64,000 bases of DNA from Candidatus Fermentibacterota bacterium (GTDB taxonomy: Bacteria > Fermentibacterota > Fermentibacteria > Fermentibacterales > JCC-6). A program made the position numbers and the translations under genes. Shown here in pieces: positions 26,479 to 41,748 of the stretch; position 1 is the stretch's first letter, and the number at the start of each line of letters is the position of its first letter. Below the pieces are notes generated by a model that saw nothing but the letters and a program-made list of their open reading frames with translations, was not told where the DNA came from and searched no databases. The stretch is from assembly GCA_963845085.1 (NCBI GenBank), contig CAWJQI010000004.1, positions 736,001 through 800,000 of the forward strand, in the 5' to 3' direction.

Positions 26479-27078
26479 ATGAGAACATCGCTTATACTGC
26501 TCGCAATGCTTGGTCTTTCAGCCTTTGGTGCCGATGTGGAGATAGGATCGAGCCAGTTTCAGTACAACGCACCACTCTGCGCGAATTGAACTGAATCCTT
26601 GCGCTACCAGGTGGTAGTGCTGGGCAGCGAGATCGGTGATGCCATGACCATCAACTCCATTGCTTTCTACTGCATGTCAGGCGAAACCGTGACATTCAAC
26701 CAGTTCATCGTATACATGGGCGAGGCCTCGGGCAGCGTTCTTGGAAACAACTTCGAAGACAACTACTCCGGCAACAAGGTGACAGTTTACAACCACAACA
26801 ACGTCACCTTTACCCCGAGCGGCGAATGGGTCAACATCCCCCTCGACACTCCGTATTTTTACGACGGAACGGGCAACCTCATCATCGAGATCGGCTGGCC
26901 GGACGGGGTTGATGAGATTTACGCCGGCTGCTGGAGCACATCGGGCAACAGGATGTTGACCTCGTTTTTCGGAAGCCCCACGGGCGACCTTTTCGAGTTC
27001 TGCCCGAACCTTCTTTTTTCGGGAAGCATGAGCCTTGCACCCATGACCTTCGGCTCAATCAAGGCGAGTTTCCAGTAA
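26479..27078 (+). CDS. Putative secreted selenoprotein A (CxxU, Sec37), 199 aa
   Basis: Signal MRTSLILLAMLGLSAFG then PLCAN-UGA(26587-89)-TESLRYQ in frame with ORF 26599-27078; SECIS-like hairpin. Confidence 0.85.
26601..26620 (+). promoter_or_regulatory. SECIS-like hairpin A
   Basis: GCGCUACC-AGGU-GGUAGUGC, starting 11 nt after UGA. Confidence 0.8.
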
Positions 27079-27115
27079 GGGTTTTGTTCCGTTCGTTCTG
27101 ACGATGGGAGGGGCA

Positions 27116-27736
27116 TTGGGCAAATGGACTCTGGCGGTAATGGCTGTTGGTTTTTCAGCCATGGCTGCGGACATCGTCATAGGTTCAAGTGTTTATCCCA
27201 TGGACATTCCACTGTGCGGGCCTTGAAGACCCGCATTGCGCTACCAGGTGGTAGTGCTTGGAAGCGAAATCGCTGACGCAATGACGATAGAATCACTGAC
27301 ATTCAACGCTTCGGAGAGCACGGGAGATTACTCGAGTTTCCAGCAGTACTACGTTTACATGGGCCCCACTACCCTCAGCAGCCTGGGAACAGATTTCGAT
27401 GACAACTATTCCGGGCCGAGGATCAAGGTATTCGACCACTCCAACGTTACCCACTACAACATAGGCGGAGTTGTCACCATACCCCTCGATACACCGTACT
27501 TCTACAATGGCCAGGATAACTTCATCATCGAGATCAACTACTTCGGCGGCGACATCGAACCAAACTCAAGCGTGTACTCAATGTACTGCTCCGTGGATAC
27601 TGACCGGATGCTTCATGCCTACTCCTTCGATGCGACAACGGGAACGACCGAGCGAGCACTTCCACATCTGATGATGACCGGCACCATGGATCTTGATGCC
27701 TGCACATTTGGTGGAATCAAGGCAAGCTTTCAGTAG
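27116..27736 (+). CDS. Putative secreted selenoprotein B (CxxU, Sec37), 206 aa
   Basis: TTG after GGGAGGGG; MGKWTLAVMAVGFSAMAADIVIGSSVYPMDIPLCGP-UGA(27224-26)-RPALRYQ in frame with ORF 27236-27736. Confidence 0.85.
27238..27257 (+). promoter_or_regulatory. SECIS-like hairpin B
   Basis: Identical to hairpin A, also 11 nt after UGA. Confidence 0.8.
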
Positions 27737-27927: not shown

Positions 27928-29301
27928 ATGAGGGCAATTCTTGCAGTACTTGTCATAGCGGCGGCGGCGGTCGCTCAGTGTCCCTTGCGGTTAACCCCTG
28001 CCGAAGCCTGTCATGAAGGCGCCGCAAGGTGCGCACTCTACGTCGACGCCAACGGAGACCAGCGCTGCGACAACCCGGGTCCCCAGCCAGTGATCGACCC
28101 CGAGCCGGAGCCTGAGCCTGAGCCGGAAACTGAACCCGAGAACCCTGTTGTCGAGGAGGGTCCAGATGACCCCGAGCCCGAGCCGGAGCCCGTTCAGCAA
28201 ACTGTAACAGAAACCACCGAACCACGCCCCGAGGATGTTGAAGAAAGCGCGCCGGCCGACTCTGTCAGGGTTGAACCTGAAGATATCGAGGTTACTGACA
28301 GTCTGGCCGTAGCTCCCGAGACGTCCGGCTTTACAGGATGCCCTCTTGGCTACATTCCGGAAGAGGCTTGCACCATTACGGCGCCGGGGTGCGCGTTGTT
28401 CACCGATACAGATGGTGACGGCAGGTGCGACAACCCCGCAGCGCCTGCGGAAACGCTTCCGGACAGCACCGAGGCTGTAACGGTGATCGGTTGCCCCCTG
28501 GGTCTTCCCCCCGAGGCTGCATGCCCGGGCGAACTTGCGTTATGCCCCCACTGGCTGGGGCAATCCACTGCAGTTCAATGCTCAAACCCTTCGGCCGGGA
28601 GCAGGCGGGTCTACATCGCCTTGATCGCCCTGGCAGTCTTGATGAGCCTTTCCACAGTTCTCAGCAGGCGTCTGAGAGGGAGAAAACTTGCAGAGCGGCT
28701 TCGTCGCAGCATAGCCCACAAGACCGTGCACGGGCTGAGCCTGATCGTTCTGGGTTTCGGCATTCAGGGCTGCTTCTGCCCGCTCGGAACATTCCAGTAT
28801 GCTTTCATGAAGGATGGGCTGGTGTTTCTGGGATGGGCAGGGGTCGCGCTCCTCGCAATTCCCTTCCTGTTTGCGGCATTCTTCGGCAGGATCTTCTGCT
28901 GCTGGGTCTGCCCCATGGGCGCAATGCAGGAGCTCGCATATCACATTCCATCCCCCGGAAAGCTCAACCCCAGGGGAAGGGTGAGCAGGGCTTTCGGCCG
29001 TTTCAGGTTCGTTGTTCTGGGCGCACTTCTAACGGTGCTCCTGCTCAACCGGTTTGAAATGATGCACTCCCAGTGGCCGGCGGTTTTCTGCAGGATCGAT
29101 CCCTTCCACACCATTTTCACGCTCTTTCTCACGGGGAGCATGATGGCTGCGGGTGTTACCCTGCTTCTGTCCGTGTTCGTGAGAAGGTTCTTCTGCAGGT
29201 ACCTGTGCTTCCTCGGCGCCGCGCTCAGTTTGTTGACCCCGCTGAGGCTCTACAGCCGCATCACCGGGAAGAAACCCCTCAAGACCAACTGCGAGATCTG
29301 A
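27928..29301 (+). CDS. NapH/MauN-like 4Fe-4S-binding membrane protein with exported Cys-rich repeats
   Basis: CFCPLG, GRIFCCWVCPMG, FCRIDPF, RFFCRYLC; signal peptide; three CPL...C...C...C.NP repeats. Confidence 0.8.
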   Translation: MRAILAVLVIAAAAVAQCPLRLTPAEACHEGAARCALYVDANGDQRCDNPGPQPVIDPEPEPEPEPETEPENPVVEEGPDDPEPEPEPVQQTVTETTEPRPEDVEESAPADSVRVEPEDIEVTDSLAVAPETSGFTGCPLGYIPEEACTITAPGCALFTDTDGDGRCDNPAAPAETLPDSTEAVTVIGCPLGLPPEAACPGELALCPHWLGQSTAVQCSNPSAGSRRVYIALIALAVLMSLSTVLSRRLRGRKLAERLRRSIAHKTVHGLSLIVLGFGIQGCFCPLGTFQYAFMKDGLVFLGWAGVALLAIPFLFAAFFGRIFCCWVCPMGAMQELAYHIPSPGKLNPRGRVSRAFGRFRFVVLGALLTVLLLNRFEMMHSQWPAVFCRIDPFHTIFTLFLTGSMMAAGVTLLLSVFVRRFFCRYLCFLGAALSLLTPLRLYSRITGKKPLKTNCEI

Positions 29302-31030: not shown

Positions 31031-31112
31031 TGCTTTCCTGCCCCCTCTTGACCCCCGACCGGGGATTCGCTAATTCATGGGCCTGATAATGCCTTTCAAA
31101 GGGGGGGAAGAT

Positions 31113-33017
31113 ATGAGGGAGACCTGGGGAAGCAAACGGGCCTTCATTCTGGCGGCGATCGGAAGCGCCATCGGGCTCGGAAACATCTGGAGATTTCCAT
31201 ACATCGCCTACGCCAACGGTGGCGGCGCCTTTCTTGTGGCCTACTTCGCATGCCTGTTCGTGGCGGGAATTCCTGTGCTGATGCTTGAGTTCGGCCTGGG
31301 TCACAGGTACAGGCAGGCTGCTCCCGGTGCCTTTCGTAGCATCAAACCTTCGCTTGAGTGGTTCGGCTGGATGGCGGCACTGTTGTCCTTCGCAATAGTT
31401 GTTTACTACGCCATCATCATGGCCTGGTGTGTGAACTACACTTACGAGGCCGCCACACTCGGCTGGAAGCAGGAACCCGGGCTTTATGCCGATCCGGCTG
31501 CAGCCGTCTCAACCACTGATCTTGCTGATATGCAGGTTCTCACCCCAGTTCCTCCCGAGATGGGTGGTACGCCATTTGTTTCTTCAGTAAGCGGGGCAAC
31601 TGGGGTGGTTGTACCGGAACCCACAACTCTTGTTTCCAGCGACGGGGCCATCTACGGGTTCGCAAACCGGTCGCAGGCGGAGGCATTCGCGGCGGATCCC
31701 TTCCGGAATGAGCTGTGCGCGCTGGCGTCAGCGGAAGGCGCCGGAACGCGCATCCTCACGGATATCCCTGCGGAACTCCTCGGCAGACCCTATGTGTCGC
31801 CTGTTGACGGATCGGCAGGCGTGGTCAGGAACATCTCCACGATTCTTGTTGCCTTCGACGGCAAGCTCTATGCTTTTGACAGCGTTGATGAGGCCAGCAC
31901 CTTCATGGGCTCGCCCGGAGATTTCTTCTACAACAGGTTCCTCGGGCTCACCTCGAAGCCGTGGGATTTCGGAACATTCCGCTGGCCGCTTCTCGTTGGT
32001 TTCATCGTGTCATGGGTATGGATAATCGCAAGCATATGGAAAGGAACCAAGACGGTGGGGCGTGTTGTCTACTACACCGTCATCATCCCGTGGGTGCTGC
32101 TGCTGGTGTTCATAATAAGGGGCGTTACACTGCCGGGGGCGGGTGTCGGGCTTGCCTATTACCTCACACCCGATTGGGCGCGGCTTCTCAGCGGTGATAT
32201 CTGGCTTGCGGCGCTGACCCAGGTTTTCTTCAGCCTGAGCGTCGGGTTCGGTGTGATGATAGCCTACGGCAGCTTCCTTCCGAAGAAGACAGACATAGCG
32301 GGGAGCGCGTTCATAATCGGAATTGCCGACTCGCTCACCGCCTTCTGCTGCGGAATAGCGGTGTTCAGCGCTCTCGGATTCCAGGCGGCACGGCTCGGTG
32401 TTCCTGTAAGCGAGGTTGTCAAATCCGGTCCGGGGCTTGCTTTCGTGGCCTATCCGCACATCATCACAAGCCTGCCCGCTGCTCCCGTATTCGGGGTGCT
32501 GTTTTTCCTCATGCTCCTCACCCTGGCAATTGATTCTGCATTCAGCCTTGTCGAGGGGGTGACATCATCCCTGAAGGACAAGTGGGGGCTGTCGCACAGG
32601 AAGGTCAACCTCATGGTGGGAACGGCGGCGTTCATCTTCGGGTTGCCGATGCTCTCAGGTGCGGGGTTGTACATCCTGGACATAGTTGACCACTTCATGA
32701 ACAGCGTTGCGCTGGTTCTTGTTGTTCTGGGGCAGCTCATAATCGTCGGCTGGGCCCTGTCCGCCGAGAAGATGCGCACCTACATCAACGCAAACTCGTC
32801 GATAAGGACAGGCTGGTGGTGGAACACAAGCATCAGGTGGATCATCCCGATGGGAATGATCTGGATGCTTGCAAGCGAGCTTCAGGCCAGGGGGGCATCC
32901 GCATACGGGAATTTCGGCCTTCGTAGCCAGGAATTCATCCTGGGGTGGCTTGTGGTGATGCTGCTTCCCGTGCTGGGCGACGTTTTTGCGTCACGAAAGG
33001 GAACCTGGAAGGACTAG
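31113..33017 (+). CDS. Na+-dependent transporter, NSS/SNF family
   Basis: GSAIGLGNIWRFPY, NGGGAF, QVFFSLS.GFG, GPGLAFVAYP. Confidence 0.92.
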   Translation: MRETWGSKRAFILAAIGSAIGLGNIWRFPYIAYANGGGAFLVAYFACLFVAGIPVLMLEFGLGHRYRQAAPGAFRSIKPSLEWFGWMAALLSFAIVVYYAIIMAWCVNYTYEAATLGWKQEPGLYADPAAAVSTTDLADMQVLTPVPPEMGGTPFVSSVSGATGVVVPEPTTLVSSDGAIYGFANRSQAEAFAADPFRNELCALASAEGAGTRILTDIPAELLGRPYVSPVDGSAGVVRNISTILVAFDGKLYAFDSVDEASTFMGSPGDFFYNRFLGLTSKPWDFGTFRWPLLVGFIVSWVWIIASIWKGTKTVGRVVYYTVIIPWVLLLVFIIRGVTLPGAGVGLAYYLTPDWARLLSGDIWLAALTQVFFSLSVGFGVMIAYGSFLPKKTDIAGSAFIIGIADSLTAFCCGIAVFSALGFQAARLGVPVSEVVKSGPGLAFVAYPHIITSLPAAPVFGVLFFLMLLTLAIDSAFSLVEGVTSSLKDKWGLSHRKVNLMVGTAAFIFGLPMLSGAGLYILDIVDHFMNSVALVLVVLGQLIIVGWALSAEKMRTYINANSSIRTGWWWNTSIRWIIPMGMIWMLASELQARGASAYGNFGLRSQEFILGWLVVMLLPVLGDVFASRKGTWKD

Positions 33018-34123
33018 TACCCCCCCAGCGCAGGACAGGTCGAGCAGTCCGACGAGACGCATTCGAGATCGGCCCGGATGAGATAGCTGAAACCGGAATC
33101 GGGTTCGCACCGGTATCCGAAACCGGTCACGTACTGGAAAACGATGCCTGACCTTTCGGTATCGTACGGTTCGTACTCCACCGCGAACAATCGGAATCTG
33201 CGCGCCTCGGCCTCCAGCACCGCCTGCTGCTGCCAGTCTGAAAGAACAGCTTCCGACCTGTGATCGAACCACCAGGGGCCGATGACACCGGACAGCTCCG
33301 GGATCCTGCCGAGCGCTTCCAGCCAATCCGTGGTGTCGGCTGAAACCACGACCATCGGGGGCATTTCAGCTCCGGAAAGGTCTTCCGCGAGTTCGAGCCC
33401 CCTGTCGCCCGCCATGCCGGTGAAGGTCAGAAGGTAAAGGGTATCCTGGTCCGTGGCGCTCCAGACGCCGGACCGGTCGTTCTGCGGTTCGACAAGCAGG
33501 GGGTCGGCAGGCTGCGAATAGTACGCCGCAAGCCCCCTGATGCCGATGACCATGAAGTACACGGCCACGAATACGGCGAGTACCCTGGCGGCCGCCGTGA
33601 ACCATTTTCTGGCCGTGAAAAGACCGGCGATGGAAAGCGGCAGCATGTAGACCGTTGTTCCAAAGAAGAATCCCGCAAACAGAAGCGCGCCGCTCAGCGC
33701 GCCTCCCGCATCGAACGCGCTTGTGAGGGCAATAAGGAATGCCGGGCATAACGAGAAGCCTGTGAGAATGCCAAGAAGGAAGGGGCTGCCCGTAAACTTC
33801 GTCCAGCGGGATACACCGCAGCCCCCGCACTTTTTATTAACCCTCAGGGTGCTGATCAGAAGAAAGATGCTGAACAGGATGTAGCCCGCGAAGGAGAGGG
33901 GTATCCTGATACCGGATGGGATGCTCCCCCCGAGCATGCCGATGACTGCTCCGAAACAGACGTAGGCTGCGAACCTTCCCAGGTTCAGGGTGAGCAGGAC
34001 CAAGAGCGATTGTCTGCCGCTCCTCTTCTCGCTGAAGAGGTAAGCCGCGTAGACCGGACCGCACGAGGCCAGACAGGACACTCCCGTTGCGAGTCCGAGG
34101 CTCAGCCCCTCAGCAAGCGCCAC
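33014..34123 (-). CDS. DsbD_2 / TauE-SafE-like membrane protein with soluble Cys-containing C-domain
   Basis: CLASCGP, NLGRF..Y, G.LTGFSLCP, FFFGT; C-terminal C..SDCSTCP. Confidence 0.7.
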   Translation of the reverse strand: MALAEGLSLGLATGVSCLASCGPVYAAYLFSEKRSGRQSLLVLLTLNLGRFAAYVCFGAVIGMLGGSIPSGIRIPLSFAGYILFSIFLLISTLRVNKKCGGCGVSRWTKFTGSPFLLGILTGFSLCPAFLIALTSAFDAGGALSGALLFAGFFFGTTVYMLPLSIAGLFTARKWFTAAARVLAVFVAVYFMVIGIRGLAAYYSQPADPLLVEPQNDRSGVWSATDQDTLYLLTFTGMAGDRGLELAEDLSGAEMPPMVVVSADTTDWLEALGRIPELSGVIGPWWFDHRSEAVLSDWQQQAVLEAEARRFRLFAVEYEPYDTERSGIVFQYVTGFGYRCEPDSGFSYLIRADLECVSSDCSTCPALGGY

Positions 34124-34147
34124 CGACTCCCCTTTCCGGGTTGAGGC

Positions 34148-35353
34148 CTAAATGTGCGCCGCAGGGTAGAAGGCCAACCCGCCCTGAAAGGAGTTCCAGA
34201 CTTCAGTGTACTCCAGTTCGGAGGCCTGGCGGCGAAGAAGGAACCATGCGGACAGACCGTTCTTCATCCTGTATTCCAGCCCCCCGCCGAAGGTTTCACG
34301 CCTGCGGGTGCCGCCTGTGCCGGGAATGCTGCTGGGACCCTCCCAAATTCTTCCGTTCACGAGAACCGAAAGACCCCTGTAGACACCAACCCTGGCTTCC
34401 ATCTCCCCGAAGCGGGTGCGGATGAAGCTGTCGGTGTTCTGGCCGTAAAAACTGATGCTGGAAGGTTGTTCTCCCCATCCGGCGAATGCGTACCTGAGCC
34501 TCGCGCCAACCTGGTAAGCCGCGAGCCTTGTAACATCGTCATCGAAATCGATGGTCTGGCACACCGTGAAGTTGAAGGTGAGGTTCCTGGCAAGCGTTTG
34601 AACCGCCCGCATCCTTGCGGTAGCCCTGTCGGGGAGCGGGGTTCCGTTGTGGTCGTCGCCGCTCTGAACCGACCATGCCAGGTCGGCCATGACCTGGGTC
34701 TGTGTGGGAAGGGTGCGGGGAGCGAGTGATGCGGCGAAGTTCAGCCTGCCGTAGGACTCGTCAAAGGCAGTTTCATCGATTACAGTGCTGTGCGACAAAC
34801 CGCTCACGCCCAGATCGACGCCCAGCGGAGTGAACCAGGTGACCCCGCCACCAGCCCTTGTTTCGGCCCAGGAAAGGTCCTGCCCGTCCTGGTCCAACAC
34901 GCTTCTGTCCCAGTAGCGTCCGAAGGCATTGAGCTTCACAGTTCCAGGAATCTCCCAGCCCAGGTTCAGTCCGGGCCTTACAGAGCTCGAACGCTCCCCG
35001 ATCCCCTCGGAGCGGGGAAGGACGACACCGGAACTGTCGAAATCGGTTGTGAAACGGAAATCCGGCCGAACCGTGAAACCACCTGCACTGTAACGTACCG
35101 AAAGTGTTGTCTCGGAGCGGTTCCGGGAAAAGCGGGGAAGCGCCGCATTGTCTTCGGATGCTTTCCGGTATGTCTGGTCAAGCTGGAAATGCCACGGCCC
35201 CTGGAACACCCGGACACCGGCGGAAGCGTCAAGGTAGGATCCGCCCCCGTAATTCACGCTGTCGCCCGCAACGGCAATGCGGGCGTACTCTTCCACACCG
35301 AGAGCCATGCAGCTCGCGAGGAATCCCGACAGGAGTATGATGAGGGTTTTCAT
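34148..35353 (-). CDS. Putative outer-membrane beta-barrel protein
   Basis: Signal peptide; alternating amphipathic strands; aromatic-rich end GGLAFY. Confidence 0.6.
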   Translation of the reverse strand: MKTLIILLSGFLASCMALGVEEYARIAVAGDSVNYGGGSYLDASAGVRVFQGPWHFQLDQTYRKASEDNAALPRFSRNRSETTLSVRYSAGGFTVRPDFRFTTDFDSSGVVLPRSEGIGERSSSVRPGLNLGWEIPGTVKLNAFGRYWDRSVLDQDGQDLSWAETRAGGGVTWFTPLGVDLGVSGLSHSTVIDETAFDESYGRLNFAASLAPRTLPTQTQVMADLAWSVQSGDDHNGTPLPDRATARMRAVQTLARNLTFNFTVCQTIDFDDDVTRLAAYQVGARLRYAFAGWGEQPSSISFYGQNTDSFIRTRFGEMEARVGVYRGLSVLVNGRIWEGPSSIPGTGGTRRRETFGGGLEYRMKNGLSAWFLLRRQASELEYTEVWNSFQGGLAFYPAAHI

Positions 35354-35595
35354 CAGTACACCGCTCCCTTCGGGCATATCTCAACGCAACGGTAGCAGAG
35401 ACGGCAGAGGTTGGGATTGATCACGGCATCGCCATCCACAACCTCGATGGCGTTGTAGGGGCATACCTTTTCGCACTCGCCGCAACCTATGCAGAGATCG
35501 TTGTCCACCACCAGACCGGTGTTTTCCGTTGGAGGTCTGCAGGCGGCCATGACGAGCAGGACACCGATGATGAGCAGCTCAGTGAATCGCATCAT
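35353..35595 (-). CDS. 2[4Fe-4S] ferredoxin-like lipoprotein
   Basis: Lipobox MAAC; CIGCGECEKVCP, CRLCYRCVEICP. Confidence 0.8.
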   Translation of the reverse strand: MMRFTELLIIGVLLVMAACRPPTENTGLVVDNDLCIGCGECEKVCPYNAIEVVDGDAVINPNLCRLCYRCVEICPKGAVY

Positions 35596-35809
35596 ATGTG
35601 CACACCCCCTGACACAGCCCGCAGCCGATGCATGTTTCGGGATCAATGCTGGACTTGCCGCCTTCAACCTCTATGGCGTTCACGGGACAGACCCGCGAGC
35701 AATCCCCACAGCCCGAGCAGTTGTCGGGCTCGACCCAGTACCGAACCGCTCCCACGGCGATTGCAGCCGTGAGGCAGAGAACAAGAAGCATCCCCCCCCG
35801 AAAACGCAT
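35579..35809 (-). CDS. 2[4Fe-4S] ferredoxin-like protein with signal peptide
   Basis: Hydrophobic N-terminus; CSGCGDCSRVCP, CIGCGLCQGVCT. Confidence 0.8.
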   Translation of the reverse strand: MRFRGGMLLVLCLTAAIAVGAVRYWVEPDNCSGCGDCSRVCPVNAIEVEGGKSSIDPETCIGCGLCQGVCTYDAIH

Positions 35810-36225
35810 CAGTTCACCTCGAATTCGACATCTATCGGGGTTTCCTCTTCGTTCACCCCGTAAAGCTCAAGGTTTTCCTCACCAACGGTCACAATGGCGC
35901 CCACCGGGCACGATGCAACACAGGCGCCACAAAGAATGCACTTCTCGGGATCGATCCAGGCCTTGTTGTCTTCGGTTATGCTGATGGCGCCGACGGGGCA
36001 GGTGTTCACGCAGATTCGGCAGCCAATGCAGGTGTCGGGGTTGATTATGTAATCCTCGTTGAGCTCGACCGAGCTAACCCCGGGGGCAACCTCGGCCATG
36101 ACGCGGCCGAATGACTTGACCCGGATTGTATCGAATTCGCCCTCAACCGGTCCCCAGCTCAGGGTGAAAAGCCCGGCAGCCGCCACAGCCGCCACGACAG
36201 GAATGATCATAAGGTGTTTTTTCAT
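35809..36225 (-). CDS. Exported 2[4Fe-4S] ferredoxin-domain protein
   Basis: Signal MKKHLMIIPVVAAVAAA; CIGCRICVNTCP, CILCGACVASCP. Confidence 0.8.
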   Translation of the reverse strand: MKKHLMIIPVVAAVAAAGLFTLSWGPVEGEFDTIRVKSFGRVMAEVAPGVSSVELNEDYIINPDTCIGCRICVNTCPVGAISITEDNKAWIDPEKCILCGACVASCPVGAIVTVGEENLELYGVNEEETPIDVEFEVN

Positions 36226-36249
36226 TGTAAATCCTTTCGCTACGAAGGG

Positions 36250-37221
36250 TTACCTGTCGGGAGGGGGCGGAGGAACATCGGGCAGGGTTCCGGCAGGTAT
36301 CGCAAGCCTTCTCACGGCCTGATTGTGGGGATAACTCTCGTCGGGATTAATGACTTCATTGTAGTTCCAGCACTCAAGGAAGCACTGACCGCAGTTCACG
36401 CAGAGGTCGTAGTTGATATAGACCATGTACTTGTCGCCGTAGACGCCTTCAAGATCCTGCCAGATCGCGTCGTACGGGCAGGAGGGACCGGTGTAGACCC
36501 CGCTCTTGGTGTATTCATTCAGAAGGGAGCAACCGGATACACAGGTGCCGGTCGAGTCCGGGGCTGAAGGCGAACAGTGGAGACAGCCACCGGTGGGAAT
36601 ATGGTCGTAAATGTAGGTTACGATCTGCATGGGGACTGAGGAAACCTGCAGGTCTTCGGAGGCCTCGGCCTCGCCGAAGTAAGCCCTGATGCCCACATAA
36701 TAACCCTCTCCAAGGCGGCCGTCGGTTATGGCATCGACCGGGCAGGCATCGACACACAGCCCGCAGCTTCCGCAGAGCGCTTCGTCGATCACGGCAACAC
36801 CGTTCTGAATGGTGATGGCTCCGACTGGGCAGGCTGCCTCACAAAGCCCGCAGCCTATGCAGGTCTCGGGTATCACCTTGGGTTGCAGAAACACGAGAGC
36901 CGAGTCGGCAGGTGCGGATATCTCTGCGGCGATGATGGCGCTTTCCCAGTTGTCGAGCGTGATGGGTGCGGTGGAAATGCGCGCCTGATACCAGGAGGCT
37001 CCCTCGACAGGGGTGAAGTGGACAGTGAAGGCCCTGTACTCCCCCCCGCTGATCCATGTGTAGAACGAGCCGAGTTCCGGTGACATGGCGGTGAAGCCCG
37101 AATCCACCAGGACCGCTCCAGACTGGAGCACGGTGGGCGCCATGGGCCGGGGCGTCTCGGTGAGACAGGCCACCATCACGGCAAGAACCACGGCAAGGGC
37201 AACGAAAGATCCCTTGAGCAT
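36250..37221 (-). CDS. Multi-[4Fe-4S] lipoprotein
   Basis: Lipobox [39 protein letters not shown] plus an extra Cys cluster. Confidence 0.8.
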
Positions 37222-37748: not shown

Positions 37749-37839
37749 GGAGGGGTGCCAGAGTGGTTGAACGGGACGGTCTCGAAAACCGTTGACTCCC
37801 TTTGGGGGTCCGTGGGTTCGAATCCCACCCCCTCCGCCA
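37749..37839 (+). tRNA. tRNA-Ser(CGA)
   Basis: Acceptor GGAGGGG/CCCCTCC, anticodon loop CTCGAAA, long variable arm, GGTTCGAATCC, CCA. Confidence 0.95.
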
Positions 37840-37894
37840 GGACACGAAAGCGGGGAGCTTCCGCCCCCCGCTTCATGCATTCAATCCCCTGAGT

Positions 37895-39647
37895 TTACCT
37901 CAGCAGACACACTGTTTCTGTAACGTCTCCAAGGGGGGACGACAGTACCAGCGTGTAGATGCCGGAAGGCAGCCTGCCGCCGGAATCGTCTGTTCCTCCC
38001 CAACTGAGACTATGGATCCTGCCTGGTACTCGCCGCTGTGGATAGTTCCCACAAGCCTGCCGGAGATGTCGAAGACCCGGAGTGACGACCAGCAGGGCGA
38101 ATCCAGTTCGAAGGAAACCATTGTGTTCGAGGCGAACGGATTGGGACGGACCGACAGCACCGGACGGTAAGAGCTTCCGGGATCGGTGACTATACCTGTC
38201 TGGGTCACCGTGAACTGGATGGTATCGCTCGCGGCAACGACACCTCCGGACCAGGAGTCGATGATCAGCTCGTTGGATCCCACCTGGGCGTAGAGGTCGT
38301 CACGATAGGTCCACTTCAGGCCCGTGCCGAAGGCGTAGAGATTGTAGTCCGTGGAGCGGCGAAGTACATCACACCGTCGGTGATGGCAGGGCTGCCTGCA
38401 AGACCCATCTGACTGGTTCCGTTTCGTAGCTCCAGATCATCCCGCCCGTTCGGCGTCGGCGGCGTTGATCAGGCCGTCGAATCAGCGCAGAAGCCTCCCC
38501 AGAAGACAAGCCCGTCCGCGACACCGGCAGACCGTGGAGCCGCTTCTGCGATGGAGGTTCGGGTTAAGGAACCAGACTCAATGGATCCGTCGGATGAATC
38601 GAGAGCGGCCAAACACCGGATTGGATGGTGGAAGTACTTCTGAGCCGCAAAAACACGGTGCCGTCATGAATACGGCGGGGTCGGCTCGACTGGGTATATC
38701 CCCCACGTTGAGACGGTGTCTCCCAGACCAGCGCATCCGTAAAGGGCGTCGAACCTGTGGATACAGGCGCTTTTCGGAAATGCTGCCGATGTAAATGATA
38801 CCGTCCACGAGGCATGGAGAAGAGTCCCAGAAGCCATCCTCGCACTCGAAGTTCAACCAGAGCATGTCTACCGGTTTCGGCATGAAGGGCGGTGAGACCG
38901 TACTGCCCGCGGTCCGAAAAGAACGGTCGTTCCATGCTGTCAGGGTGCAGACGCTGACCGAGGGGTTCCTGCGTCCTCCAGATCTCCTGGCCGGTAAGAA
39001 TGTCGAGTGCGTATACATAAGCGCATGATGCGAAGACGCGATGTCATCGTAGACAGCATGGAGGCCCGGCAAAGAATATATCAGGCCCGGAACCCCACCC
39101 GAAATCCCAGACTCTTTCGACCCGTCTGATGGCATCGAGACAGTAGAGCTGAATCAGATGCGAGGTAAATGCGTACCCGTTCTGGACATGCAGTCCCGAT
39201 CGTCAGAATCCAGGGTCTGATAGGCCCTCAAAATGCCAGATCTCTTCTCCTGTCGCGGCATCGAGGGCATGTAGATCCTATCCCTATATTCCGACGAATA
39301 GAAGTACCACGCCGTCGACTACGATACGGATGTGGCAAATTCGTGATGCGCTCCGGTGACGGGCGCTGTCCAGAGCATCACCGTTTGTCAGTGCGGCGCG
39401 GAGATTCGGAGAACCCGGTACGAGCATTGTTCTGCCATGTAGGTGTGACCAGTCGGTGACGAGCCGTGGAACCGGCAGCGAACGGTTCTCCGTTCAGGGA
39501 GAAGACCACCGAATCCGGCAGAGCATTCTCGTTCTCGACGATTGCCCTGAGGGTCAGCCAGTCGCCGTCGTAAACGCCTCCGTCGGCCGGCTCGATGATG
39601 GAAACGCTTACCGCCGATAGAATGCCGAGCAGAAGACAAACCGCCAT
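37895..39647 (-). pseudogene. PQQ-like beta-propeller/T9SS-CTD gene copy 1, many frameshifts (pseudogene or consensus error)
   Basis: N- and C-terminal fragments match copy 2; WDSSP..VDG.IYIGS fragment in the middle. Confidence 0.75.
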
Positions 39648-39775
39648 GAATGCCTCCTTAGTGCTACAATGTGTCCGTGAGAATAAAGTGGAGGCAGCCG
39701 CGAGTCAACGCCTCGGAAAACTCAATGAAAGCGGGAGGCTTCCGCCCCCCGCTTCATGCATTCAATCCCCTGCGT

Positions 39776-41462
39776 TTACCTCAGCAGACACACTGTTTCT
39801 GTAACGTCTCCCAGGGGGGACGACAGTACCAGCGTGTAGATGCCGGAAGGCAGCCTGCCGCCGGAATCGTCTGTTCCTCCCCAACTGAGACTATGGGATC
39901 CCGCCTGGTACTCGCCGCTTTGGATAGTTCCCACAAGCCTGCCGGAGATGTCGAAGACCCGGAGTGACGACCAGCAGGGCGAATCCAGTTCGAAGGAAAC
40001 CATTGTGTTCGAGGCGAACGGATTGGGACGGACCGACAGCACCGGACGGTAAGAGCTTCCGGGATCGGTGACTATTCCGGTCTGGGTCACCGTGAACTGG
40101 ATGGTGTCGCTTGCGGCCACGACACCGCCGGACCAGGAGTCGATGATCAGCTCGTTGCTCGCCGACCTGGGCATAGAGATCGTCACGATAGGTCCACTTC
40201 AGGCCCGTGCCGAAGGCGTAGAGGTTGCCGTCGGTGGAGCCGAAGTACATGACGCCGTCGGTGACAGAAGGTGTGCCCTGAAGACCCCACTCTCCAGGAT
40301 TCGGGTGATACTCCCAGATTATGTTGCCTGTTGCTGCATCCGCTGCGCAGATGTTGTCGTAGGGAGCGTGGCACCCTCCCCAGAATGCCACACCGTCGGC
40401 TATCGCCACCGAACCATGAAGACTGCCGGGAATGGACCATTGGATCGACCCGTCCGAGCAGGCAAGCGCAGCGACACAGCCGTCCGACGATCCGAAGCCG
40501 ATGTTCCCGCACAGCACCATATCACCAAAGACGGCGGGGGTGGGTTCAGTGGAAACGGTACCCAGCTGGGTCTCCCACTCCAGATCTCCCGTCAGTGCAT
40601 CGAACCTGTGAACCGCGCCGTCATACCCTCCGATGTAGATCTTCCCGTCAAGCAGCGTTGGAGAGGTGTCCCAGTAGCCACCCTCGGTTGCGGAGTTTGC
40701 CCAGAGGACCTCACCGGTGAGTGCGTCAAGAGCGCACAGGGGACCCATGTATGTTCCGACGAAGAACATCCCGTTCCAGCCCGCAATGCAGTTCCCGATG
40801 GCACCCTCGATCTCGCTGCTCCATGCAACAGCGCCGCTTTCCCTTATCAGGCCGAACACAGTCGTCTTGTTGGTCTGGTAGCTTCCGGTGGCGCAGGCCA
40901 CGATCCCATTCATGACACATGGTGTTCCACCTTCAAGGTCAGCGCCGTAAAAAGCCCACTGCCTCTCTCCGGTCAGCGCATCGATGCAGTAGATGGAGTC
41001 AGACGCAACGTACAGCATGCCTTCATGGCAGGCGGGAGCATCATCATGCTCTCCAATTTCGAAGCTCCAGTTCTCGGCGCCGGTCGCCGCATCGAGTGAG
41101 AAGACCTTTTCGATGCCCACGTGGTAAACGTTGCCGTCAACCACGACCGGGTTCTCGAACACATGAAGACTGTCGCATACGGGGGCGGTCCAGAGTATCT
41201 CACTGGTCATCGGGGCGGGAGATAGTGAGAAGCCCTGATGCAGATTGTTCTGCATGTAGGTTGGCCAGTCCGTACTGAGCCTTGGCACCGGCAGGAACGG
41301 TTCTCCGTTCAGGGAGAAGACCACTGAATCCGGCAGAGAGTTCTCGTTCTCGACAATTGTTTTCAACGTGAGCCAGTCGCCGTCGTAAACGCCTCCGTCG
41401 GCGGGCTCGACGATGGAAACGCTTACCGCCGATAGTATGCCGAGCAGAAGACAAACCTCCAT
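39776..41462 (-). CDS. PQQ-binding-like beta-propeller protein with T9SS/FlgD CTD, one frameshift near 40161
   Basis: DWPTY..N, repeated LDA.TG...W, YFGSTDGNLYAF; CTD RPNPF...VFDISGRLV...SGIY in the shifted frame. Confidence 0.8.
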
Positions 41463-41748
41463 GAATGCCTCCATAGCGCTACAATGTGTCCGTGAGAATA
41501 AAGTGGAGGCAGCCGCGAGTCAACGCCTCGGAAAACTCAGTGAAAGCGGGGGGCTTCAGCAGGCCTGCCGGCCTCCACTCCGGTGGTCAGGCTTTAACCG
41601 AATGGCTTTTGCCTCCGGAACCTGCCGTACGAGACGGACATCTTCCTCCCGAAATCCGGAGTAGTTAGATTCAAATGCAGGTTATCACGCACGGCCATCA
41701 TCATTCGCCTGCCCGTGTCTCGCTGCAGGATTCGGGGGTTTCGACGTT

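Follow-up and report, generated by a model that had tools for sequence, protein, structure and literature searches.

The 64,000-nucleotide stretch analysed here as a whole (the window; contig CAWJQI010000004.1, positions 736,001 to 800,000) of a Candidatus Fermentibacterota bacterium carries a compact gene set, designated A to F, that encodes four ferredoxin-type proteins with export signals, a predicted outer-membrane beta-barrel and a DsbD_2-like membrane protein. An earlier sequence-only reading had described six co-oriented, tightly packed genes, and all six open reading frames (ORFs) were found on the minus strand at 33014-37221, with intergenic gaps of 24, -1, -17, -1 and 24 nucleotides in order from A to F. 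The set of six proved correct but incomplete, since a linked seventh gene, N, lies beyond the span then considered. The genes are:

36250-37221, minus strand: A, 323 amino acids (aa); lipoprotein that combines two ferredoxin domains, with room for four clusters, and an Fn3-like beta domain
35809-36225, minus strand: B, 138 aa; Sec/SPI-type signal (general secretory pathway, signal peptidase I), a small beta domain and a ferredoxin domain with two CxxCxxCxxxCP motifs
35579-35809, minus strand: C, 76 aa; minimal ferredoxin of 55 residues after a signal peptide
35353-35595, minus strand: D, 80 aa; acidic minimal ferredoxin, lipoprotein, always directly preceding the barrel gene
34148-35353, minus strand: E, 401 aa; outer-membrane beta-barrel of 20 strands, with no plug and no known family
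33014-34123, minus strand: F, 369 aa; six-helix DsbD_2 (PF13386) membrane protein
27928-29301, plus strand: N; membrane protein of the NapH/NosR-like type (Fer4_5) that has a signal peptide and, on the periplasmic side, three four-Cys repeats

The barrel gene was detected in 44 of the 46 Fermentibacterales genomes searched and in none of 14 genomes from outside this order. Among the 36 loci fetched from these 44 genomes, on which all orthologue counts given below rest, 34 retain the order A-B-C-D-E-F and every one retains B-F, so that the cluster is conserved. Genome-wide, 36 ORFs contain a CxxCxxCxxxC motif and seven of them have it preceded by a strongly hydrophobic stretch; because four of these seven are the neighbouring genes A-D, their clustering is not a matter of chance. 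The other three are a signal-peptide ferredoxin on another contig and, judging from sequence features, an RnfB anchor and an RnfC-like ORF with a likely over-long start. Promoter and terminator scans of the locus stayed at chance level (1 found versus 1.6 expected and 4 versus 4.0, respectively), and three RNA runs gave two fragments of 36-38 nucleotides from unrelated contigs, which carry no weight for or against expression.

The Pfam Fer4 profile recognises A-D with 58-68 bits (cut-off 21), and the NCBIfam FdxA_fam model gives 63.3 bits for B and 64.3 bits for C, just under its cut-off of 65 bits. Profiles, alignments and the model of A all reveal two CxxCxxCxxxC motifs in a beta-alpha-beta fold, the sequence criterion of 2[4Fe-4S] bacterial ferredoxins, and in the alignments of C and D the eight ligand cysteines, their spacing and the flanking ferredoxin residues are invariant. 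The paired CxxCxxCxxxC(P) motifs previously assigned to four proteins are indeed present in A-D, but a single pair understates A, which has 16 invariant cysteines and two ferredoxin domains. In the A model these domains are set in a beta-sandwich, and the first one aligns structurally with 2[4Fe-4S] ferredoxins to within about 1-1.5 Å over 52-73 columns; the A family comprises 88 full-family homologues above a sharp score drop. Gene A is tandemly duplicated at two loci (L038 and L046).

The invariant ligands and flanking residues, the scores at the FdxA_fam cut-off and the superposition of A make it improbable that the cysteine motifs have been repurposed outside the cell for zinc, copper, nickel or disulfides, with F and N acting as a metal-delivery pair like DsbD_2/CcoG in cbb3 assembly clusters. 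What speaks for such a role is that F homologues are annotated in the source records as 'sulfite exporter TauE/SafE family', a transporter-like fold family, and that we know of no periplasmic machinery for building Fe-S clusters, literature searches having given none.

Export signals were called from patterns, hydropathy and charge. The two lipoboxes read earlier in A and D are well conserved: the pattern is present in 35/36 A and 33/36 D orthologues, and its cysteine is invariant in the aligned rows (32/32 and 33/33, respectively). Positive charge is higher on the n-side of the hydrophobic stretch than in the next 15 residues in 36/36 orthologues of A, 34/36 of B, 29/36 of C and 36/36 of D; in the controls, the signal of barrel E was export-type in 36/36 and the RnfB control was reversed. 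Inward-facing anchors, which the sequence-only reading had named as an outcome that would undo it, were not found in A, B and D, whose N-termini are signal-peptide-like. That all the hydrophobic N-termini are uncleaved anchors, leaving the ferredoxin domains cytoplasmic as in RnfB, is very unlikely given this charge pattern, the invariant lipobox cysteines of A and D and the Fn3 repeats on the large member, although C-types are often basic immediately after the hydrophobic stretch, and the export bias falls short in C and reaches 11 of 22 proteins in the fourth phylum described below. Protein C is the weakest case, combining this lower bias with a bare RR pair in 11/36 orthologues. The absence of a twin-arginine motif, claimed before, therefore holds for the window proteins but not for every orthologue of C; a complete motif of the twin-arginine translocation (Tat) type was found in none of the 36 orthologues of A, B or D and in one of C. 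The n-regions of the signals are short (3-4.5 residues).

The outer-membrane barrel predicted earlier was borne out by structure modelling, and the failure of this prediction, which would have refuted the proposal, did not occur: AlphaFold models E as a plug-less barrel of 20 strands (pLDDT 89.9, pTM 0.77). Strand 1 begins at residue 2 of the mature chain, and the 22 strands and N-terminal plug of TonB-dependent receptors are absent. E matches no Pfam or NCBIfam family, the MtrB family included. Its best structural neighbours are TonB-dependent and porin barrels, with Z up to 16.6 and a root-mean-square deviation (rmsd) above 4 Å, and MtrB (Z 13.2, rmsd 8.1) ranks below unrelated barrels; no barrel stands out in the PDB comparison, which is not evidence of a new fold. 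Several arginines of the polar face are nearly invariant, and the net charge of this face averages +2.1 (range -7 to +12). A sequence search for relatives of E beyond the order gave 23 matches among 1.84 billion representatives, one of which, a repeat protein, was discarded. A metagenome scan with a single protein of the set gave no match.

The assignment of F to the DsbD_2-like membrane proteins was confirmed by Pfam PF13386, which scores 79.5 bits over residues 7-191 (cut-off 24.9). The cysteines C17, C21 and C126 are invariant in the orthologue alignment. Hydropathy and the distribution of basic loops predict six helices with both ends outside, so that C17, C21 and C126 would lie in the membrane, C99 and C102 would face inward, and the C-terminal domain, ending in CxxC, would be periplasmic. 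The CcdA/DsbD family model PF02683 does not recognise F, which gives only PF13386 and a weak match to a domain of unknown function; no solved structure similar to F was found in a PDB search, and no thioredoxin-like gene occurs among the conserved members of the loci. F is a single-copy gene in the host genome. Short, membrane-only homologues (about 205 aa) were excluded from counts of the gene set; they occur at loci L129, L130 and L191-L200 without exported ferredoxins, several of them near genes of Fe-S oxidoreductases. At L042, F lies within an ORF of 785 aa, a possible fusion or read-through.

Protein N scores 50.4 bits with PF12801 in two stretches and stays under the NapH and NosR equivalog cut-offs; its polytopic domain carries the Fer4_5 CxxxCP motifs expected of NapH/NosR/CcoG-like proteins, and the four-Cys repeats precede the membrane domain. 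It is present in 29/36 loci, convergent with the operon, despite variable genes between them. Two genes for secreted proteins lie upstream of N:

26479-27078, plus strand: secreted protein, likely CxxU, with an in-frame TGA at 26587, three codons after a Cys
about 27104-27736, plus strand: secreted protein, likely CxxU, with an in-frame TGA at 27224, three codons after a Cys

The TGA position is identical in 25/25 homologues checked, SelA is encoded in the host genome, and two further paralogues of this type are located on contig C5. The two proteins are likely selenoproteins, and it is possible that they are clients of N. Contig C5 of the host also contains an rnf-like cluster (G000:C5, about 362300-367800). 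A fifth signal-peptide ferredoxin (G000:C5:368757-369230), with a C-terminal beta domain like the tails of secreted proteins, is located about 1 kb from rnf genes.

The layout recurs beyond Fermentibacteria, in Fibrobacterota, in Cloacimonadota contigs and in a fourth diderm phylum. A scan based on F gave 67 loci, and for 12 of these the records are those of Fibrobacterota or Coatesbacteria. Six Fibrobacterota loci combine several signal-peptide ferredoxins with a protein of about 414 aa and F, and five of the six add a large lipoprotein with a C-terminal ferredoxin domain and a co-oriented NapH-NapG fusion; Fn3 repeats were found in the one large Fibrobacterota lipoprotein scanned. The barrel-like family of about 414 aa is present in 18 of 296 Fibrobacterota genomes. 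F accompanies it in all 18, in the long form in 17, and the 278 genomes without the barrel yielded no long-form F and five membrane-only matches. In several Fibrobacterota genomes sets of C, D and barrel genes outnumber the F genes, of which there are one or two. The gene preceding the barrel, the positional equivalent of D, encodes a signal-region cysteine in 25/25 loci. An RR pair occurs in 6/25 Fibrobacterota C-types, some of them Tat-like in form, and internally in the NapH-NapG fusion at 12 of 13 distinct loci. Among 80 metagenome loci kept from 338, 18 of low guanine-plus-cytosine content encode two small signal-peptide ferredoxins, a protein of 370-480 aa and F; a co-oriented NapH-like gene is also present at five of these 18, and Cloacimonadota names appear in the clusters of three. 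NapH-like homologues adjoin F, co-oriented with the set, in both Fibrobacterota and Cloacimonadota. In the available text of a review of the phylum Cloacimonadota, a term search found no mention of Tat (PMC12590816).

The genes for C, D and the barrel form the core common to the four lineages. The putative barrels from outside the host order are barrel-like in size, in their aromatic or hydrophobic C-terminus and, for most of them, in strand-like residue alternation (z 0.8-4.1, versus -1.0-0.8 in four controls). On a tree of C-types from the four lineages, 28 of 29 fall in one branch, with one cytoplasmic row inside it (support 95/76, few columns). The last cysteine of C is followed by Thr or Ser instead of Pro, and the absence of this Pro in 28/29 C-types marks the family across phyla. 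E and the Fibrobacterota barrel share their first ESM Atlas cluster (0.96), with a low recognition value for E (1817), which is a lead only.

The fourth phylum is of particular importance for the mode of export. No tatC gene was found in any of its 26 genomes (control 11/14), an absence from draft genomes that falls short of proof although 18 are at least 90% complete; TatA was likewise not found in any of five genomes searched and the second tatC model, TIGR00945, had no match in 4/4. BamA and Lgt are present, and signal-peptide ferredoxins occur in 17 of the 26 genomes; one such protein among 22 has a real RR pair. A search for F gave matches in 20 of the 26. In four genomes a signal-peptide ferredoxin directly precedes F without a barrel, among them the 98% complete G057, where it is a polyferredoxin and tatC gave no match. 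G361 and G366 encode A-like, C, D and barrel-like proteins, and G368 the same except for C. In G366 and G368 (loci L338, G366:C96, and L339, G368:C382), the ferredoxin and barrel genes come immediately after a gene on the same strand that we take to be rnfD-like from its motifs, an arrangement that hints at Rnf as an electron source. No cytochrome c assembly protein was found in four genomes of this phylum.

That the same type of protein persists where tatC was not found is the strongest new point, and it provides a direct comparative argument for export that would be independent of Tat. The competing explanation is that the ferredoxins receive their clusters in the cytoplasm and leave, already folded, through Tat by means of a degenerate twin-arginine signal on C, the other proteins being carried along. 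TatC is indeed present in 39/39 genomes of the order and in 16/18 barrel-bearing Fibrobacterota genomes, the RR pairs in C-types would fit such a signal, and since the host genome encodes one clear canonical Tat substrate, the pathway has a purpose to spare. Yet the signals are short, A, B and D have their own signals free of RR, and the fourth phylum possesses the set without a detectable tatC; we regard Tat export as a minor possibility, of slightly lower probability than a metal or disulfide role of the cysteines.

We propose that the gene set encodes a haem-free 'porin-ferredoxin' conduit whose proteins are exported by Sec and acquire their clusters outside the cytoplasm with F as a factor, a reading to which we assign an even chance. 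A-D would be exported unfolded, and A and D would be lipidated by Lgt, which the host genome encodes together with BamA. The apoproteins would obtain 4Fe-4S clusters only after leaving the cytoplasm, and F would be the factor dedicated to this step, moving sulfur, iron or thiol reductant through the inner membrane. Electrons would be supplied by an inner-membrane module, NapH-like N in the host, the NapH-NapG fusion in Fibrobacterota and possibly Rnf in the fourth phylum; they would pass through periplasmic B and C to barrel E, with C and lipoprotein D in or at its lumen, and from there to A, the large lipoprotein with the Fn3-like domain, at the outer membrane. Along this path, electrons of low potential could pass between a fermenter and sulfur species, minerals, partner cells or surface enzymes.

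The part assigned to F departs from the sequence-only reading, in which it supplied reductant. That role is one of two options, and the distribution of F seems no less compatible with a maturation factor used in common. A role in cluster assembly is suggested because long-form F tracks the set and one or two F genes can serve several C-D-barrel copies, and because F remains beside exported ferredoxins where barrel and NapH are missing; as a source of electrons, the NapH-like or Rnf neighbours are more plausible. The wider proposition, that Sec-exported apo-ferredoxins, periplasmic 4Fe-4S assembly by a DsbD_2-type factor and a haem-free low-potential wire through a barrel are shared by at least four anaerobic phyla, is put forward more tentatively, and we would sooner expect it to fail in some part than to hold as a whole.

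Several observations weigh against the conduit. Cluster binding, envelope location and barrel contact of A-D are putative, and some four clusters from two small ferredoxins would make a short wire for a membrane. The polar-face charge of E is modest, and charge complementarity between lumen and ferredoxins is therefore weak. E is the only barrel that was folded, its counterparts in other phyla being barrel-like by sequence features; homology of E to the Fibrobacterota barrel was not detected (HHalign probability 0.5 and 0.6%), and the D-types form no single branch on a tree of 53 columns. Related genomes are not independent, and the host does possess TatC. In the fourth phylum, F is usually located elsewhere on the chromosome than the ferredoxins, 4/17 genomes with ferredoxins have no match to F, 7/20 genomes with F have no such ferredoxin among the 30 loci fetched, and an export-type charge bias is seen in only 11 of 22 proteins, one of these 22 having a mis-set start.

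Part of this evidence would also be explained if the exported ferredoxins carry clusters but serve periplasmic or surface redox reactions only, the barrel being a channel for solutes or proteins and not the sheath of a wire; examples would be the reductive release of iron or another metal entering through E, or the maintenance of secreted Cys/Sec proteins in a reduced state. The TonB-dependent and porin barrels nearest to E in structure, the CxxU-type proteins adjoining N, the fact that most fourth-phylum genomes have signal-peptide ferredoxins and F with no barrel next to them, and the modular use of NapH-like proteins as feeders of many extracytosolic enzymes (PMC8238504, in the part available) are all consistent with this, but E has no plug, the loci contain neither a TonB receptor nor a conserved reductase, and D stays beside the barrel gene in four lineages even where the barrel sequence is unrecognisable. 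We consider this explanation unlikely, but the most serious of the alternatives to a conduit.

Compared with known systems, the conduit proposed here most closely resembles the porin-cytochrome complexes (Geobacter Pcc OmbB-OmaB-OmcB and Shewanella MtrCAB) in having a plug-less barrel, a periplasmic carrier and an outer-membrane carrier. Membership in this class calls for a barrel of 18-28 strands in the cluster, a range that includes E with its 20 strands; according to the accessible text of one report, OmbB is predicted to have 20 strands and 45 kDa, and Pcc barrels 18-22 strands (PMC4282303). The differences are that the carriers are of the ferredoxin type without haem motifs, that no cytochrome c assembly gene (PF01578) was found in 39 genomes of the host order (control 9/14), that the likeness of E to MtrB is generic and structural only, and that the set includes the inner-membrane DsbD_2 protein F. 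No multi-haem proteins were found in the host genome. Because the haem features fail, the set falls outside the porin-cytochrome complexes.

Among Tat-exported Fe-S proteins (NapG, DmsB, PFD), a class defined by a twin-arginine signal on the protein or on a partner, which the window proteins lack, the polyferredoxin PFD is a dual Sec-Tat protein marked by an internal RR (PMC5449189). NapGH and PFD share the NapH-type membrane domain with the present system, and the Fibrobacterota NapH-NapG fusion has an internal RR too, whereas N has no NapG domain or cytoplasmic Fer4 motif and instead carries periplasmic four-Cys repeats, A-D have no Tat signals, and the accessible part of the PFD account describes neither barrels nor ferredoxin lipoproteins. 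The ApbE-flavinylated systems, as far as the consulted part of their description goes (PMC8238504), likewise have a NapH- or DsbD-like membrane protein feeding secreted, lipidated redox proteins, and cofactor attachment outside the cytoplasm. They differ in that no flavin mononucleotide (FMN)-binding domain was detected by Pfam in A-F or N, no ApbE was found in the host genome (88% complete), and F belongs to PF13386, not PF02683. CcdA/DsbD and DsbD_2 proteins have six helices and membrane-embedded cysteines, as F does, but F differs by additional CxxC pairs on either side and by the lack of a thioredoxin partner in its loci. A precedent for cluster building away from the cytosol is the membrane Fe-S maturation factor NqrM, which, in the text available, is a small protein unrelated to F and serves an intramembrane 2Fe-2S site (PMC12174285). 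A ferredoxin entering an outer-membrane barrel is known from FusA/FusC of Pectobacterium, where, according to the portions of the literature at hand, the barrel is a plugged TonB-dependent receptor and the ferredoxin comes from the host, unlike the self-made ferredoxins and plug-less barrel here. The main text of the lineage genome paper, in its available part, reports no respiration genes and merely suggests sulfur reduction, and makes no mention of outer membrane or electron transfer (PMC5030696).

The set is real and deeply conserved and no described counterpart was found; its function we infer from the sequences. The earlier statement that no system of this make-up had been described agrees with a full-text literature search, which found none, most subscription journals being outside its coverage. 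Normally, an Fe-S protein receives its cluster before leaving the cytoplasm and is exported by Tat in the folded state, and electron wires across the envelope rely on haem or flavin. The set departs twice from this textbook pattern, and the phylum without detectable Tat makes the first departure hard to dismiss. If the exported proteins hold clusters, an undescribed extracytoplasmic route of Fe-S assembly would follow, an Fe-S counterpart of cytochrome c maturation with F as its named candidate. If the barrel carries ferredoxins, fermenters of digesters and sediments may trade low-potential electrons with sulfur, minerals and partners; such organisms are rated as incapable of extracellular electron transfer by screens that seek multi-haem cytochromes.

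Two further features of the window lie on either side of the operon. An SNF-family transporter gene (31077-33017, plus strand) with an insertion of about 130 residues in its first half is convergent with F and linked to it in many loci. On the other side, a PQQ-repeat-like secreted gene beside tRNA-Ser (37749-37839) occurs in near-duplicate stretches at about 37850-38480 and 39560-41500 with frameshift-like breaks, which may reflect a duplication or an assembly artefact.

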